From Escherichia phage vB-Eco-KMB23, in sequence record OR525702.1: DNA of 64,000 nt, one strand, 5' to 3'. Shown here piece after piece: positions 462-61,772 of the stretch. The first letter of the stretch is position 1. Each line of letters starts with the position of its first letter. Under the pieces are notes generated by a model. It did not search any database and was not told the origin of the DNA. It worked only from the letters and a program-made list of their open reading frames with translations. Position numbers and translations under genes: made by a program.

Positions 462-2568
462 ATGACTTTATTATCTCCGGGCATTGAGCTCAAAGAAACT
501 ACGGTTCAAAGCACCGTGGTTAATAACTCTACTGGTACAGCAGCTTTGGCCGGTAAATTCCAGTGGGGTCCTGCTTTTCAAATTAAACAGGTTACAAATG
601 AAGTAGATTTAGTTAATACTTTTGGTCAACCTACAGCTGAAACTGCTGACTATTTTATGTCTGCAATGAATTTCTTACAATACGGAAATGATTTGCGAGT
701 TGTGCGTGCTGTCGATAGAGATACCGCTAAAAACTCATCTCCGATTGCCGGTAATATTGAATACACTATTTCTACCCCAGGTAGTAACTACGCGGTTGGA
801 GATAAAATCACTGTTAAGTATGTTTCAGAAGATGTTGAAACAGAAGGTAAAATTACTGAAGTAGATGCTGATGGAAAAATTAAGAAAATTAATATTCCTA
901 CCGCAAAAATTATCGCTAAAGCGAAAGAAGTAGGCGAATATCCAGCATTAGGTTCTAACTGGACTGCGGAAATTTCTTCGTCTTCCTCTGGTTTAGCTGC
1001 AGTAATAACTCTTGGGAAAATTATTACTGATTCTGGTATTTTATTAGCTGAAATTGAAAATGCCGAAGCTGCTATGACAGCTGTTGACTTTCAGGCAAAT
1101 CTCGAAAAATATGGAATTCCAGGAGTAGTAGCTCTTTATCCAGGCGAGTTGGGCGATAAAATCGAAATTGAAATCGTATCTAAAGCTGACTACGCAAAAG
1201 GTGCTTCTGCATTACTCCCAATTTATCCAGGTGGCGGAACACGCGCATCTACTGCCAAAGCAGTGTTTGGATATGGACCACAAACTGATTCACAATACGC
1301 TATTATAGTTCGTCGCAATGATGCTATTGTTCAAAGCGTTGTTCTTTCAACAAAGCGTGGTGAAAAAGATATTTACGATAGTAACATCTATATTGATGAC
1401 TTTTTCGCAAAAGGTGGTTCAGAATATATTTTCGCAACTGCACAAAACTGGCCAGAAGGCTTCTCTGGAATTTTAACTCTGTCTGGTGGATTATCATCAA
1501 ATGCTGAAGTAACAGCAGGAGATTTGATGGAAGCTTGGGACTTCTTTGCTGACCGTGAATCTGTTGATGTTCAGTTGTTTATTGCGGGTTCTTGCGCCGG
1601 CGAATCTTTAGAAACAGCATCTACTGTCCAAAAACACGTCGTTTCAATTGGGGATGCTCGCCAAGATTGCTTAGTACTGTGCTCACCACCGCGTGAAACT
1701 GTAGTTGGAATTCCTGTAACTCGTGCTGTTGATAACTTAGTCAATTGGAGAACTGCAGAAACACGTCGTTTCAATTGGGGATGCTCGCCAAGATTGCTTA
1801 GTACTGTGCTCACCACCGCGTGAAACTGTAGTTGGAATTCCTGTAACTCGTGCTGTTGATAACTTAGTCAATTGGAGAACTGCAGCAGGTTCATACACTG
1901 ATAATAACTTTAATATCAGTTCAACCTACGCAGCAATTGATGGTAACTACAAGTATCAGTATGACAAATATAATGATGTGAATCGTTGGGTTCCATTAGC
2001 AGCTGATATTGCTGGTTTATGCGCGAGAACAGATAACGTTTCTCAGACTTGGATGTCTCCAGCTGGTTATAATCGCGGCCAAATTTTGAACGTTATTAAA
2101 CTTGCTATTGAAACTCGCCAGGCGCAGCGCGATCGTTTATACCAAGAAGCTATCAACCCAGTAACTGGCACAGGTGGTGATGGTTACGTATTGTATGGTG
2201 ATAAAACAGCTACTTCTGTTCCTTCTCCATTTGATCGTATTAACGTTCGTCGTCTGTTTAATATGTTGAAAACGAATATCGGACGTAGTTCAAAATATCG
2301 TTTGTTCGAATTAAACAACGCGTTTACTCGTTCATCGTTCCGCACAGAAACTTCCCAGTACTTGCAGGGAATTAAAGCTCTCGGTGGAATTTATGAATAT
2401 CGTGTAGTTTGCGATACAACAAATAACACTCCGTCAGTAATTGATAGAAATGAGTTTGTTGCAACATTCTACATCCAACCGGCTAGAAGCATTAACTACA
2501 TTACCTTAAACTTCGTAGCAACTGCTACTGGTGCAGATTTCGATGAGTTAACTGGTCTTGCAGGTTAA
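462..2568 (+). pseudogene. 18: tail sheath protein gene, frame broken by a 127-bp tandem duplication (track ORFs 462..1823 and 1978..2568 are its two parts)
   Basis: N-terminus MTLLSPGIELKETTVQ is gp18-like; frame 0 stops at 1821-1823 inside second repeat copy; authentic sequence continues in frame +1; 2107 nt minus 127 = 1980 nt = 659 codons + stop. Confidence 0.85.
1632..1885 (+). repeat. perfect direct tandem duplication, 2 x 127 bp (1632..1758 and 1759..1885)
   Basis: Base-by-base identity at offset 127 across the whole unit; mismatch immediately outside both ends. Confidence 0.95.
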
Positions 2569-3181: not shown

Positions 3182-4833
<1,652 letters not shown>

Positions 4834-11558: not shown

Positions 11559-12977
11559 TTATGGATAGGTATAGATGATACCAGTTTCTAAAGCAGTTTT
11601 ATGAATGATGTATCCATTACGTGATTCTTGAACATCAACTTCTGGATAGTCTTTCATCATCTTCTGAAGGGTGTAACGATGCAGGTAGTATTTACTATCT
11701 GGATCTTCAGTTTTCCAATCTTTACCTTCTTCGGTCATTTTTTGGATTTCATCCATAACCCACCAACCGCACCAGATATAAGCCGAAGTACGATGTGGAA
11801 GAGGATGAACATAAGGCAATTCACCTTCTGGTTCTGGAGCAACTTTATCAGTTACCTGAACTTGACCTTCTGCTGTGATAGTTTTGCTATCATAATCAGT
11901 AGCAGTAACAGTTGCAGTAACTTCAATAGTTTGACTTCCAATAGATGATGTATCAACAGTGTATACATTAGTTGACCCTTCTACTGGAGAAGAATCTTTC
12001 TTCCATGAATATTCGATTTGTGCTTCTTCTGGAGCATCCGTAACATTAGCAGTAAATGTAGCCGAAGCATCTTGCTGAACGTTAATAGAAGGAGGAGTCA
12101 ATGTAACCTGTGGATTCATTGTCTTCTTATTAACTGTTAATGATACTTCATTAGAAGTAACTGTTTTTGCGTCATAATCTGTTGCTGTTACTTGCGCTAC
12201 GCATTTAATTCTTTTTACTCCACTTGTAGTTGGAGTATAGCTAAATGTAGCAGAAGTCGCTTCACCAATTTGAGAATCATCTACATACCACTGATACGTA
12301 GCAGATGCCCCATCAGGTTGAGAAGCTAAGGCAGCGGTAAATTCAACGGCTGTTCCAATCACTCCAGCTGGAGGACTATCAGGAGTTACTGCCAAGGTAG
12401 TCGTCTGCGTCTTTTTATTAACAGTCAATGATACTTCATTAGAAGTAACGCTTAGTGCATCATAATCTGCCGCAGTTACTTGAGCTACACACTTGATTTT
12501 TTTAACTCCGCTTGTGTCAGGAGTGTAATTGAATGTAGCGTCAGTTGCTTCGTCTACAGGAGAACCGTCAACGTGCCATTGATACGTAGCGTTTGCACCT
12601 GATGGCTGTGAAGCTAAGGCAGCGGTAAATTGAACGGCTGTTCCGATTACTCCTTCCGGAGGACTAGCAGGAGTTACGGCTAATGTAGTTGTCTGTGTCT
12701 TATTTTGAACCGTGATAGTTGTCGTAGTTTCTGCTGTTTCAGGTTCAGATTCTGCAACTTGATTGGTTGCAACTACTTTAATAGTCTTTTGACCGGCAGG
12801 TCCTTTTAGTACATAACTAAAAGTTGCTGACGTTTCTTCCTGTGGAGCGTCGTCTACAGTCCAAGCATATGTAATAGGTCCATCTCCAGTTTGACCACTG
12901 GGTGTAGCAGTAAACTGCTGAGTCTGATCTATAACTCCAGTAGGTGTTTTAGGAGTTATATCAACTGTAAAAGCCAT
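11559..12977 (-). CDS. hoc: outer capsid decoration protein Hoc, five-domain variant
   Basis: 472 aa; termini match T4 Hoc (376 aa) from memory; contains two adjacent, roughly 80 percent identical 96-aa Ig-like domains. Confidence 0.85.
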   Translation of the reverse strand: MAFTVDITPKTPTGVIDQTQQFTATPSGQTGDGPITYAWTVDDAPQEETSATFSYVLKGPAGQKTIKVVATNQVAESEPETAETTTTITVQNKTQTTTLAVTPASPPEGVIGTAVQFTAALASQPSGANATYQWHVDGSPVDEATDATFNYTPDTSGVKKIKCVAQVTAADYDALSVTSNEVSLTVNKKTQTTTLAVTPDSPPAGVIGTAVEFTAALASQPDGASATYQWYVDDSQIGEATSATFSYTPTTSGVKRIKCVAQVTATDYDAKTVTSNEVSLTVNKKTMNPQVTLTPPSINVQQDASATFTANVTDAPEEAQIEYSWKKDSSPVEGSTNVYTVDTSSIGSQTIEVTATVTATDYDSKTITAEGQVQVTDKVAPEPEGELPYVHPLPHRTSAYIWCGWWVMDEIQKMTEEGKDWKTEDPDSKYYLHRYTLQKMMKDYPEVDVQESRNGYIIHKTALETGIIYTYP

Positions 12978-36093: not shown

Positions 36094-36104
36094 TTTGTTT
36101 TCCT

Positions 36105-45098: not shown

Positions 45099-45955
45099 AT
45101 TGCCATTTTCCCTTTAATTGCTGGATGCGATTCATAATTTTCAAGGATAAAATCTTTCGGTTTCATGTATTCAGTTAACCAGTAAAGCTGTGTTTCGGTG
45201 TCACAATTTCCAAACTCTATAGGCCAATCAATTTTAAGTTCACACAGTTCTTTAGGCTCACGACGTAAAATTTCTTTACATTGCGCAGTATGATTCATAT
45301 AGATGTGAGTATTACCACCAGAAAATATCAAATCTCCTGGGATAAGATTACACATCTTAGCCACAATATGCGTCAAGGCAGCGTACGAGGCAATGTTGAA
45401 TGGCAAGCCCAAGAAAACATCTACACTTCTTTGGTACCATTGTAAATCAAGATAACCATTACGCACATTAAACTGATAGAACATATGACAGGGCGGTAAT
45501 GCCATTTGATTGATTTCAGCTGGATTCCATGCTGAAACGATTTGACGTCGATCAGTTGGTAATTTTTTAATACGATCAATAGTTTCAACTAATTGATCCA
45601 CACCACCGAAATCACGCCATTGTTTACCATATATAGGACCAAGTTCACCACTATGATATCCTAGGTCTTTAGCTTGGTTTTCATAATTGTCATCCCAGAT
45701 AGTTTTACCTTGAATAAGACTACCGTGAGTAAGAAGACGTAAATCATTAACATTGGTAGAACCGGAAATAAACCATAAAAGCTCAGCAATGCATGCATTC
45801 CAGGCGAGCTTCTTAGTTGTTACTGCAGGAAAACCTTTAGTTAAATCCCAGCGTAATTTAGTACCGAACAGAGCAATTGTTCCTATGCCTGTTCGGTCAT
45901 CGGTTTCATAGCCATTTTCAAAAATGTCTTTAATTAAATCTTGGTATTGTTTCAT
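45095..45955 (-). CDS. td: thymidylate synthase, uninterrupted
   Basis: 286-aa continuous ORF; no intron. Confidence 0.9.
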
Positions 45956-46000
45956 TTAGTACCTTATATAAATTATAATACATTTTATGAAGCTGAATAA

Positions 46001-46348
46001 TCAATACGGTTTAGCATCAAATTTTCTTTCAATTTCAGGCGTGAAATATAATTCTTTACCGCGTTTGGAAAAGCGACCAATAATATGATAATTATTCTCA
46101 TCAAACGTGATATTACCAATATCCATAGCTTTCAACCAAATATCGATATTTCTATCCAGCTTTATGTCAAAATTCCAATACGGAGAACTATTACCGAAAA
46201 TACTGCAAGCGGATTCAGTAAAACAACTACTATAAATCTTATCTTTAGGAACTACTAATTGATAGACACCTTTAATAAACTGAGGACCCTGCCACTTTGG
46301 CTGTTTCGCGTCTTTTTCTAATAGAATAGGGTAATAATTAAAATTCAT
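46001..46348 (-). CDS. hypothetical protein encoded between frd and td
   Basis: 115-aa ORF with ATG start; late-promoter-like TATATAAATG about 25 bp upstream. Confidence 0.6.
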   Translation of the reverse strand: MNFNYYPILLEKDAKQPKWQGPQFIKGVYQLVVPKDKIYSSCFTESACSIFGNSSPYWNFDIKLDRNIDIWLKAMDIGNITFDENNYHIIGRFSKRGKELYFTPEIERKFDAKPY

Positions 46349-46367
46349 ATTTTCCGCCAGTGTTATT

Positions 46368-47197
<830 letters not shown>

Positions 47198-47208
47198 ATT
47201 ATCTCCTA

Positions 47209-47541
47209 TTAAAAAGGATCAGGAACATATCCGCTAGCTTTAATCATTTTAATTAACGTTAACATTCCTTTGTTAACTGCTCGTGAGATTTCATCAAAAA
47301 CTTCATCACTAAAAAGTTCTAACACACCCTTCTGAACTTTTAATTTACAGCCAACAATTTCGTCATCGCCTATAGTAAATTCATTACCACCAATTCCTCC
47401 GAAAAACTTAATTACACCAGTTAACTGTCTTCCACGAGAATATGGGTCGTGTGATAAAGTAATATGAGTCACCCCGGGTACAGTTTTAAATTGGCAGCGA
47501 ATATTTACTTGGGAAATTCCAGTTACATGAATATCAGACAT
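47209..47541 (-). CDS. hypothetical protein
   Basis: 110-aa ORF. Confidence 0.55.
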   Translation of the reverse strand: MSDIHVTGISQVNIRCQFKTVPGVTHITLSHDPYSRGRQLTGVIKFFGGIGGNEFTIGDDEIVGCKLKVQKGVLELFSDEVFDEISRAVNKGMLTLIKMIKASGYVPDPF

Positions 47542-47551
47542 AATATTTTCC

Positions 47552-47794
47552 TCAAACAGACTTTTTCACAATTTTCCAATCAGCTTTAAACTGTTCAACG
47601 TCAGAATGGTAAATCCAGAATCCTGCGCTTTCTCCATCCTCATAAAGAGGGCATCCATCACATTCATCTTCCCATCCCATATCACGCAAAAGACGTTCAG
47701 CTTTTTCAACAAGTTCAGAATCTTTACCAATAATATTAAAATACCATTTACCTCTAACTTCTGAATCTTTGATACTCTGACGTTGTAATCTCAT
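47552..47794 (-). CDS. hypothetical protein
   Basis: 80 aa from ATG 47794 with RBS AAGGAGAATAAA; track ORF begins at TTG 47851. Confidence 0.55.
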   Translation of the reverse strand: MRLQRQSIKDSEVRGKWYFNIIGKDSELVEKAERLLRDMGWEDECDGCPLYEDGESAGFWIYHSDVEQFKADWKIVKKSV

Positions 47795-47814
47795 TTTATT
47801 CTCCTTAGTTGATA

Positions 47815-47849
47815 AGGCTATAGTATCACTACCATAGCCTGTTGTAAAC
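47815..47849 (-). promoter_or_regulatory. early promoter with embedded stem-loop (PeSL-like cassette)
   Basis: GTTTAC, then 7-bp inverted repeat AGGCTAT/ATAGCCT bracketing the -10 (TACTAT). Confidence 0.55.
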
Positions 47850-47851
47850 AA

Positions 47852-48112
47852 TTATTTTTGAATTTTATCGAGCCACTTACCAAGCTTAATCATTTCTTTA
47901 GTAGCCTTTTCCATACTTCTGAACTTAACCAATAGAGGATAGGTATCGACACCCATAACTAAACTGGTTACAAGACTGTGTTCACCCACAAGCCATAACG
48001 AATACGTTTGAATATCGAGCCCGTAATTTCTGTCTTTGTGGACCCGTACACCCATCACTTCAAATTTCTCACTAGCTTTTTCTACCGCATTCAGGAAATC
48101 ATCTTTAGTCAT
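47852..48112 (-). CDS. hypothetical protein
   Basis: About 86 aa from ATG 48112; track ORF begins at TTG 48145. Confidence 0.45.
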   Translation of the reverse strand: MTKDDFLNAVEKASEKFEVMGVRVHKDRNYGLDIQTYSLWLVGEHSLVTSLVMGVDTYPLLVKFRSMEKATKEMIKLGKWLDKIQK

Positions 48113-48113
48113 A

Positions 48114-48494
48114 TTAGGCCTTAAAAGTTTTTCGCAAAAGTTCAATGATTTCGTCTACATTGTTTTCATCTACAATGCAGTGAATTTTTGTTACGCCAGA
48201 AACCTTGTCTTTGACTTCATCTTCTTCAGAAGTCGGTTCTTTATACTCACGAAAACAATGAAATTCGTCTTCGCAAATTTCTAAAAGTCTATCTTTGAGG
48301 TAAAAATGCTTTCCATTTGCGCATTCAATGTGTTTTACTGCTTTATATCCGTTAGCGACGGAAACTTCTTTAACTTCAAACCATCCGCCATTATCTCGAA
48401 TGGCTTTAACTATTGATGAATTAGAACGTGGGCTATAATTAATAAATGTATCAATAAGTCTTGGAACAAGTTCATACTTTTTACCGATATACAT
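48114..48494 (-). CDS. hypothetical protein
   Basis: 126-aa ORF, ATG with SD GAGGA. Confidence 0.6.
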   Translation of the reverse strand: MYIGKKYELVPRLIDTFINYSPRSNSSIVKAIRDNGGWFEVKEVSVANGYKAVKHIECANGKHFYLKDRLLEICEDEFHCFREYKEPTSEEDEVKDKVSGVTKIHCIVDENNVDEIIELLRKTFKA

Positions 48495-57914: not shown

Positions 57915-60900
57915 ATGGCTACTTTAAAACAAATACAATTTAAAAGAAGCAAAACTGCAGGTCAACGTCCTGCTGCTTCAGTATTAGCCGAAGGTGAATT
58001 GGCTATAAACTTAAAAGATAGAACAATTTTTACTAAAGACGATTCAGGAAATATCATTGACTTAAGCATTACCGCTGGCGGTAATATCAGTGGTAATATC
58101 ACTCAAACTGGTGATTATACACAGACTGGAAAATTTAATTTAATTGGCCCGCAGATTATAGCAAGTGGTGGATATATTGAGTTTAATTATCGTACTACTG
58201 GAAGTGGGGCTTGGTCCGGTCAACACACTGCAAAGGCTCCAATTTTTGTAGATTTAAGCTCAGCTACTTCCACATCTGAATATAATCCTATAATTAAACA
58301 GCGCTTTAAAGATGGAACTTTTTCATTAGGTACTTTAGTTTCTGAAGGTTCGTTGAAGATTCATTATATTGATGAAACTGGTCAATCTAAATATTGGACA
58401 TTTGCGCGCTCAGGTAATTTTCAAGTTGATTCTGGTAATTTATTAGTATCTGGTGGGTATTTAGTCGCTCAGAGTAATATTGAAACAAGAACAGGTTCTT
58501 TGATTGGTCCATCTGTTGTAACTAAAAATATTTCATTTGATACGAAAGCGTTTGGACAATACGATTCGCAGTCATTAGTTCAATATGTTTATCCTGGAAC
58601 TGGTGAAACAAACGGAATTAATTACCTTCGTAAATTCCGTGCAAAATCTGGTGGTACGATTTATCATGAATTAGCTTCTGCACAAACCGGAAAAAGTGAT
58701 GAACTGTCTTGGTGGACCGGTAATACAGCCGTTAATAAACAAATGGGCCTTCGCAATGATGGGTCTTTAGTGTTGCGACGCTCACTCGCAATTGGTACAA
58801 TTACAACAGATGAAAACATTAATAATTACGGCTCCACTGGAGCAATGGGTGAATGCTATATAGTCATTGGAGATGCCGCAACTGGTGTATCATATAAAAG
58901 ATCTGGTGTATATGATTTAGTTGCTAATGGTCTTTCTATCGCGTCTATTACTCCTGACAGTTTCCGTAGTACTCGTAAAGCATTATTTGGACGTTCAGAA
59001 GACCAAGGCGGAACATGGATTATGCCTGGAACGAACGCTGCTTTTTTATCGGTTCAAACACAGGCTGATGAAAACTCTGCTGGAGATGGTCAAACCCACA
59101 TTGGATATAACTCTGGCGGTAAAATGAACCACTATTTCCGTGGTAAAGGAAAAACTAATATTAATACTCAAGAAGGCATGGAAGTTAACCCAGGTATTTT
59201 GAAATTGGTAACTGGCTCTAATAATGTAATGTTTTATGCTGATGGCGGTATTACATCTGTTAAGCAGCTTTCAATATATAACGGCATATATTTAGCAGCT
59301 AATAATTCTACTGCTGGGCTAACATTCGCTCCAACTACTACAATTGATGGCACTAAGCAAATTTTGTGGGAAGGCGGTACTCGTGCTGGTCAGAATAAAA
59401 GCTATGTAACTGTTAAAGCATGGGGTAATTCATTTAACGCATCTGGCGATCGTAATCGTGAAACGGTTTTTGAAGTAGCTGATGGACAAGGATATTATTT
59501 TTATTCACAGCGTGTGGCTCCAAGTGGCTCTGAAACTACTGGGCCTGTTGTAACCCAGTTCAATGGACAAGTTAATGCTAGAGGAAGTATTATTACTGAC
59601 GGAAGTTTTAAAGTTAATGGATTAAGCACTTTAGTCGGTAATGTTACCATGTCTAATGGTTTGTTTGTCCAAGGTGGTTCTTCTATTACTGGACAAGTAA
59701 AAATTGGTGGAACTGCTGATGCATTAAGAATTTGGAATGCCGAATACGGTGCTATTTTCCGTCGCTCAGAAACAGCATTACATATTATCCCGACTCCTAA
59801 AGATGCCGGTGAAAGTGGTGGAATAAGTAATCTCCGCCCACTTAGTATTAGTCTTAATAATGGTATGGTACAAATGCGCCATTCTGTTACGTTAGGCGAT
59901 GATGGCGCTGGCGGTAATATGATTACTGTGGACAACGATACCAAACTTGTTGTTGTTACTAGTAATAGTCGCATTTCTCCTAATTACCGTATGCAGGTAG
60001 GACAAGCAGCTTATATTGATGCTGAATGTACTGACACAGTTCGCCCGGCTGGTGCAGGGTCTTTTGCTTCACAAAATAATGAAAACGTTCGTGCTCCATT
60101 CTATATGAATATTAATCGTACAGATACAAGTACTTACGTTCCTATTTTGAAACAACGATATGTCCAAGGAAACAGTTGTTATTCTCTGGGAACTCTAATT
60201 AACGGCGGTAACTTCAGAGTTCATTATCATGAAGGCGGCGATGGCGGTTCGACTGGCGCTATTATAAAGGATTTAGGTTGGGAATTTAACAAAAATGGTG
60301 ATTTTATATCTCCTAAGCGTGTTTCTGCTGGGGGTTCAGTTTATTTAGGTACAGACGGCAATATTACAGGTGGTTCTGGCAATTTTGCTAATTTAAACAG
60401 TACAATTGAATCACTTAAAACCGATATTGTATCGAGTTACCCAATCGGTGCTCCTATTCCATGGCCAACGGATACTCCTCCTGACGGTTACGCTATTATG
60501 GAAGGTCAGACTTTTGATAAGTCTGCATACCCAAAATTGGCTATGGCTTACCCATCTGGCGTAATTCCAGATATGCGCGGGCAAACTATTAAAGGTAAAC
60601 CAAGTGGTCGAGCTGTATTAAGCGCAGAAGCCGATGGTGTTAAGGCTCATAGCCATAGTGCATCGGCTTCAAGTACTGACTTGGGTACTAAAACTACGTC
60701 GAGTTTTGATTATGGTACTAAGACGACAAGTAGCTTTGACTATGGCACTAAGACTAGCAATACCACAGGTAACCACTCTCATACTGTAAGCGGTACTACG
60801 AGTTCTGCTGGTGCACACCAACATGCGCGCTCAGGTCCTCAGTTACAAGCCGGCATACCCAATAACATATTCTATGACGGATATAATAGTGTAGGTGCAA

Positions 60901-61193
60901 ACGCCAACGCTAAAATCACCGGATCTGTGAGCGGTGCTACTGCAGGGTCGAATATAGCCAAAACTTCTTCAGACGGTGCTCATACTCATACTTGGTCTGG
61001 TACTACAAGCACTACAGGTAACCATGCTCACACAGTAGGTATCGGTGCTCATACCCATACTGTAGGTATCGGTGCTCATACCCACACGGTAGCAATTGGC
61101 TCGCATGGTCATACTATCACTGTAAATAGTACAGGTAATACAGAAAACACGGTTAAAAACATTGCTTTTAACTATATCGTTCGTTTAGCATAA
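57915..61193 (+). CDS. 37: long tail fibre distal subunit with receptor-binding tip
   Basis: 1092 aa; C-terminus ...[31 protein letters not shown] with HxH repeats as in T4 gp37. Confidence 0.9.
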
Positions 61194-61220
61194 GGAGAGG
61201 GGCTTCGGCCCCTTCTGAAT
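61192..61220 (+). promoter_or_regulatory. gene 38 split ribosome-binding site (SD, hairpin, AUG)
   Basis: AAGGAGAGG followed by GGGGC-ttcg-GCCCC hairpin and ATG 61221. Confidence 0.6.
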
Positions 61221-61772
61221 ATGAAAATATATCATTATTATTTTGACACTAAAGAATTTTACAAAGAAGAAAATTACAAACCGGTTAAAGGACTCGGTCT
61301 TCCTGCTCATTCAACAATTAAAAAACCTTTAGAACCTAAAGAAGGATACGCAGTTGTATTTGATGAACGTACTCAAGATTGGATTTATGAAGAAGACCAT
61401 CGCGGCAAACGAGCATGGACTTTTAATAAAGAAGAAATTTTTATAAGTGACATTGGAAGCCCGGTTGGTATAACCTTTGATGAGCCCGGCGAATTTGATA
61501 TATGGACTGATGACGGTTGGAAAGAAGACGAAACATATAAACGCGTTTTAATTCGCAATAGAAAAATTGAAGAATTATACAAAGAATTCCAAGTTTTAAA
61601 TAATATGATTGAAGCTTCTGTCGCGAATAAAAAGGAAAAATTCTATTATAAAAACCTTAAGCGGTTCTTTGCTCTTTTAGAAAAGCATGAGCATTTAGGT
61701 GGTGAATTCCCTTCATGGCCTGAAAAAGAACGGAAACCTTGGTATAAGCGTTTATTCAAGCATTACGTATAA
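61221..61772 (+). CDS. 38: tail fibre assembly chaperone (T4-type gp38)
   Basis: 183 aa, matches T4 gp38. Confidence 0.9.
   Translation: MKIYHYYFDTKEFYKEENYKPVKGLGLPAHSTIKKPLEPKEGYAVVFDERTQDWIYEEDHRGKRAWTFNKEEIFISDIGSPVGITFDEPGEFDIWTDDGWKEDETYKRVLIRNRKIEELYKEFQVLNNMIEASVANKKEKFYYKNLKRFFALLEKHEHLGGEFPSWPEKERKPWYKRLFKHYV

Follow-up and report, generated by a model that had tools for sequence, protein, structure and literature searches.

The tail sheath of T4-like phages, the product of gene 18, is essential. The genomes of these phages are circularly permuted, and by convention they are re-opened at rIIA before deposition. T4 also provides the classical cases of tandem duplication, which lie in the rII region, and the classic case of translational bypass, in which 50 nt of gene 60 are skipped. 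A different precedent comes from genome assembly: the maximal k-mer of SPAdes is 127 (PMC11210271, PMC5923482, PMC8104045), and a 127-bp artefact has been described together with a SPAdes k list of 21-127 (PMC11210271) as well as in two further studies (PMC5923482, PMC8104045), in one of which the 127-bp terminal repeats were removed and the genome was then reopened for synteny (PMC8104045). Raw phage contigs bearing 127-bp terminal repeats have likewise been reported (PMC6714547, PMC9009655). In addition, work on small qnrB19 plasmids that used SPAdes recorded '50-bp or 127-bp insertions', located in an intergenic region, as differences between plasmids (PMC6854032), and the 127-bp insertion found there may be the same untrimmed-overlap artefact.

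The DNA analysed here, a stretch of 64,000 nucleotides to which we refer as the window, is a T4-like (Tequatrovirus) segment that runs from the end of gene 17 (large terminase) through genes 18-24, hoc and the baseplate genes, and that further contains the alt, nrd, td and frd genes, gene 32 and the tail-fibre genes 34-38. Its closest genome is that of phage ECP2301, which is 98.3% identical over the first 20 kb, no phage record being higher over 20 kb; across the ~50 kb that could be mapped, the megablast segments against ECP2301 ranged from 84% to 98.6% identity.

A 127-nt tandem repeat in gene 18

The stretches at positions 1632-1758 and 1759-1885 are the same at every base. The initial annotation had reported this identity, and it held up by eye, in a string comparison and in TRF, which gave a period of 127, 2.0 copies, 100% matches and a score of 508. 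A perfect tandem repeat of 127 nt is well past chance expectation, and TRF found no second perfect repeat of similar length in the 64-kb window. Copy 1 (1632..1758, + strand) encodes gp18 residues ~391-432, and copy 2 (1759..1885, + strand), which is identical to it, is surplus; deletion of either copy leaves the same sequence. The repeat cannot be extended at either limit, given the A at 1631 against the G at 1758 and the C at 1886 against the A at 1759, so that its size is exactly 2 x 127 nt with an endpoint microhomology of 0 nt. The novel junction between the copies (1753..1764, + strand), at which comparison of the flanks showed microhomology to be absent, consists of CTGCAG followed directly by AAACAC, and in its wider context of ...AATTGGAGAACTGCAG followed directly by AAACACGTCGTTTC... 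The repeat lies mid-codon within gene 18, and its position is unrelated to gene boundaries.

Each copy closes with CTGCAG, a PstI site, at 1753-1758 and 1880-1885. The presence of this site directly before the novel junction is probably a coincidence, because the opposite side of the joint has no PstI half-site. The two sites, together with the fact that no public record matches the window exactly, could be taken to suggest a manipulation after assembly, in the form of a manual edit, the pasting of scaffolds, an in-silico insertion or a construct derived from cloning. However, a joint made by PstI ligation needs both partners to be cut by the enzyme and restores CTGCAG across the joint, whereas the unit opens with AAACACG after CCAA, which does not constitute a PstI site; such a cloning joint is therefore unlikely, and the occurrence of a 6-bp palindrome at one of the boundaries calls for no great coincidence. 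We consider manipulation very improbable as the source of the repeat, and it overlaps with the reading as an assembly artefact that is developed below, since in both the duplication would be absent from the phage.

The effect of the repeat on the reading frame was followed by tblastn with the ECP2301 sheath protein as query, which placed gene 18, the gene for the contractile tail sheath, at 462..2568 on the + strand, a length of 2107 nt that includes the extra 127 nt. The query was matched in two pieces, each more than 99% identical: residues 1-432 aligned with 462..1757 in frame 3, and residues 389-659 aligned with 1753..2565 in frame 1. Since 127 = 3x42+1, gene 18 reads as frameshifted. The ORF shortened in this way (462..1823, + strand) encodes 453 aa, of which 432 are native and the last 21 are missense residues, ETRRFNWGCSPRLLSTVLTTA, and it ends with the TGA at 1821-1823. 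The rest of the gene, encoding residues ~433-659, is found at 1886..2568 (+ strand), where it is read in +1 with respect to the start codon, and ends with the TAA at 2566-2568. The initial annotation had proposed a frame 0 stop at 1821-1823 after about 21 missense codons, with the authentic sheath sequence continuing in the +1 frame to 2568; the first part is borne out by the 453-aa ORF and the second by the tblastn match at 1753..2565.

Subtraction of 127 nt from 2107 nt leaves 1980 nt, that is, 659 codons and a stop, and in silico removal of one copy indeed yielded an unbroken protein of 659 aa, as had been predicted for the deletion of a single copy. The repaired product aligned over residues 1-659 with the T4 gp18 chains of PDB entries 9mkb and 3j2m, and it contained the Pfam domains PF22671, PF22639, PF17481, PF04984 and PF17482, each over its cut-off, which agrees with the earlier assignment of the gene as a T4-type gene 18. 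In the 453-aa product, on the other hand, half of PF04984 was left and PF17482 was gone entirely. A full-length gp18 with domains I-III and the sheath C-terminal domain was obtained only after removing one copy, and in that form gene 18 fits into the gp18 sheath family without any peculiarity. The initial annotation had set the existence of an intact second gene 18 against its reading of the locus; none was seen by tblastn within the 64-kb window, which is part of a ~167-kb genome, and we know of no T4-like genome with one.

The broken frame also raises the question of whether the gene might be rescued by programmed recoding, through either a +1 frameshift or the bypassing of one copy by ribosomes in the manner of gene 60; for the latter, the tandem repeat trivially supplies take-off and landing codons that match at a distance of 127 nt. 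However, copy 1 has no in-frame stop after any potential take-off codon, the first stop being at 1821 in copy 2, and the RNA at the junction does not fold stably (MFE -17.1 kcal/mol vs -22.2 on average for shuffled sequences, z = +1.64). The feature is moreover not conserved, as it is absent from the best-ranked relatives, and a frameshift within copy 2 would place a 42-residue insertion in the conserved core of PF04984. The combination of a take-off codon and stop, an RNA structure and conservation that characterizes a recoding site was not found at this locus, and we regard recoding as extremely unlikely.

Origin of the repeat

We searched for the duplication in related phages with the 701 nt at 1400-2100 of the window as query, which matched 583 phage records. 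In the best 40 of these 583 records, the 701-nt query fell on a span of 574 nt in two pieces, corresponding to a single copy. A match to a record with the duplication would extend over 701 nt in one piece and would rank first. The 39-mer across the junction was absent from IMG/VR and from metagenome contigs, its 24-mer core was absent from IMG/VR, and neither the 453-aa truncated product nor the 196-aa C-terminal ORF is on record in public assemblies. We looked for another assembly of this phage by means of the Hoc protein of the window, for which public assemblies had no match on record, and of a distinctive 56-mer from 46.2 kb, which was absent from IMG/VR. Complete E. coli genomes and plasmids likewise contained nothing that matched the window.

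The sheath region was most similar, at 99.4%, to MG010123.1, a record of 32 kb titled 'Staphylococcus phage SAJK-IND'. Mislabelling or contamination of this record is probable, because its sheath gene is T4-like and of the Escherichia type.

The data on relatives bear on the possibility of a real and very recent tandem duplication, produced by replication slippage or illegitimate recombination, which would have resulted in a sheath-defective genome, present either as a dominant defective variant co-infecting with the wild type or in a non-clonal or environmental sample. The duplication is present in the sequence as given, and the perfect identity of its copies suits a recent event; a biological event of 127 nt is physically possible, and T4-type phages form tandem duplications. 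However, the length equals the maximal k of SPAdes, a coincidence with a chance of ~1% or less for an arbitrary length, and the endpoints share 0 nt, whereas slippage and illegitimate recombination usually use a few shared bases. Such a duplication would also be lethal: an essential gene is frameshifted, and a duplication compatible with propagation would have to be neutral, selectable or complemented, whereas here PF04984 is halved, PF17482 is lost and the 64-kb window holds no second gene 18. A lytic phage that has been plaque-purified should not have a genome broken in this way as its consensus. Furthermore, the very active homologous recombination of T4 would quickly delete a direct repeat of 127 nt, so that it should not become the consensus, and there was no independent occurrence in the public data (the best 40 of the 583 records, IMG/VR, metagenome contigs and public assemblies). 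We therefore consider a genuine duplication to be quite unlikely. Its occurrence would mean that a sheath-defective T4-like genome dominated the population, having arisen de novo without homology and persisting by helper co-infection as a 'cheater' before loss of the repeat, and this we judge to be decidedly improbable.

A true terminal redundancy was rejected, since the redundancy of T4-type phages is circularly permuted and amounts to kilobases, and fixed ends of 127 bp do not occur.

We consider it very likely that the 127-nt duplication is an assembly artefact that is absent from the DNA of the phage, and that the actual phage most likely carries one copy and makes a normal sheath protein of 659 aa. 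With a circularly permuted genome, a de Bruijn graph assembler would be expected to produce a 'circular' contig in which the first k bases are the same as the last k bases, and SPAdes, metaSPAdes or Shovill, when supplied with reads of ~250 nt, would arrive at a final k of 127. If such a contig were closed untrimmed and re-opened at the conventional start, the k-mer would stand twice in tandem where the old ends had been; alternatively, two contigs adjacent in the graph and with a common 127-nt overlap could have been pasted end to end. The former contig ends would then have fallen within gene 18 by chance. The length of the repeat, taken alone, leads us to infer that the assembler was SPAdes, or any other run with k=127.

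The repeat has the properties that would be expected of an overlap left in place by such an assembler. Its period in TRF is the final k of 127; its copies agree at 100% of positions, point in the same direction and have no sequence between them; and its breakpoint is arbitrary, with no relation to gene boundaries and with the 0 nt of microhomology that are expected of an arbitrary k-mer break. Consistent with this, the duplication was missing from the relatives and independent data that were searched, namely the best-ranked of the 583 records, IMG/VR and metagenomes. The initial annotation had left three explanations side by side, a defective genome, a recent duplication in a mixed population and an assembly artefact; the last of these is now strongly favoured, and the first two are not. 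It had not taken into account that 127 is the maximal k-mer of SPAdes, and the zero divergence between the copies, from which it had argued for a very recent event, is also what an artefact predicts, as are the lack of microhomology and the single copy in the best-ranked relatives.

Integrity and variable regions of the window

We assessed the integrity of the window by translating the 72 annotated CDS of ECP2301 and searching the window with them by tblastn. A full-length match in a single HSP was obtained for 69/72, the sheath alone was split, and the other 2/72, which are small accessory ORFs, were simply missing from the window. The ORFs between 48 and 64 kb were intact and of the expected sizes, including gp32 (302 aa), gp59 (217 aa), gp34 (1289 aa), gp35 (371 aa), gp36 (221 aa), gp37 (1092 aa), gp38 (183 aa) and the holin (218 aa). 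An error-ridden assembly or a decaying genome is ruled out by these data, with 69/72 CDS whole, only gene 18 split and the ORFs of 48-64 kb intact. The window holds one isolated defect, and this defect is exactly as long as the assembler k.

Several further repeats were noted in the window. In hoc (11559-12977, - strand), TRF detected a tandem repeat of 288 bp x 2.0 with 78% identity at 12121-12701, which presumably mirrors the repeated Ig-like domains of Hoc. The Hoc protein is 91.9% identical to its ECP2301 counterpart, against 99-100% for its neighbours, which points to a locally fast-evolving surface protein. The distal part of gene 37 (57915-61193) contains in-frame tandem repeats at 60677-60756 (30 bp x 2.7) and at 61029-61092 (27 bp x 2.4). 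In the frame of gene 37, the 27-bp unit, CACACGGTAGGTATCGGTGCTCATACC, encodes H-T-V-G-I-G-A-H-T, and we take this unit to resemble the His-x-His repeats of the tip of the T4 long tail fibre. In the portal gene, gene 20, there is a perfect 19-nt direct repeat, TGAAGCTGGCACAAAAATA, at 3835-3853 and 3925-3943; its spacing of 90 nt is in frame, and it may represent a short internal peptide repeat.

The window also differs from ECP2301 in other regions. The receptor-binding module at 57915-61772 encodes a gp37 of 1092 aa and a gp38 of 183 aa, compared to 1293 and 264 aa in ECP2301 (L002 8182-12888), and the nearest phages for the region of 45-64 kb are 303Ecol101PP and teqdroes; these differences in the tail fibres are the usual mosaicism of Tequatrovirus. 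The td-frd region (45100-48120) shows 84-91% identity to ECP2301 and is far more diverged than the rest. An ORF of 115 aa at 46001-46348 (- strand; phrog_1928) stands in place of a 68-aa ORF of ECP2301, and a 175-aa ORF of ECP2301 (phrog_3710, L001 36255-36782) is missing from the window at 36097-36099. Such gains and losses of ORFs are accessory-gene flux typical of T4-like phages.

Significance and comparison with known systems

The tail sheath gene of this phage is almost certainly normal, and the biological weight of the repeat is accordingly very small, its practical value being one of quality control. An untrimmed k-mer overlap would add 127 bp to the length of a complete genome and would present an essential structural gene as two pseudo-ORFs, here one of 453 aa and a C-terminal fragment, and it can distort annotation, pan-genome counts and the calling of 'defective phages'. 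As a rule, a perfect tandem or terminal repeat that is as long as the k of the assembler (127 in the case of SPAdes) is best presumed to be an artefact until reads contradict it. In practice, one 127-nt copy should be trimmed and gene 18 re-annotated as a single CDS of 1980 nt. If the duplication were true, it would be of modest interest, as a lethal duplication caught while being carried along among T4-like phages.

Comparison with T4 gp18 (PDB 3FOA, 3J2M/3J2N, 9MKB) shows that the one-copy product has the same length of 659 aa and all of the gp18/sheath Pfam domains, whereas the ORF as written in the window ends after residue 432 and 21 missense residues. The T4 gene 60 bypass is similar in that an essential ORF of a T4-type phage is broken by an insert whose length is not a multiple of 3; here, however, there is no take-off codon with a stop, no hairpin and no conservation, and the insert is a copy of coding sequence. 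The duplications of the T4 rII region share with the present case a direct tandem repeat, a T4-type genome and the identity of young copies, but they are kilobase-scale, selected for function and unstable, whereas the repeat described here is 127 nt long, destroys an essential gene and has no homology at its endpoints.

With the SPAdes 127-bp overlap the locus has in common an exact length of 127 nt, perfect identity, direct orientation, an arbitrary site that lacks microhomology and a circularly permuted T4-like genome. The published copies were found at the ends of linear contigs and were trimmed, whereas those in gene 18 are adjacent and internal, and this internal adjacency implies an extra step, in which the contig would have been circularised or rotated, or contigs concatenated, without trimming. 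At the level of the sequence, the repeat in gene 18 matches the SPAdes 127-bp overlap artefact in every testable feature, namely its length, identity, orientation, arbitrary breakpoint and absence from relatives.
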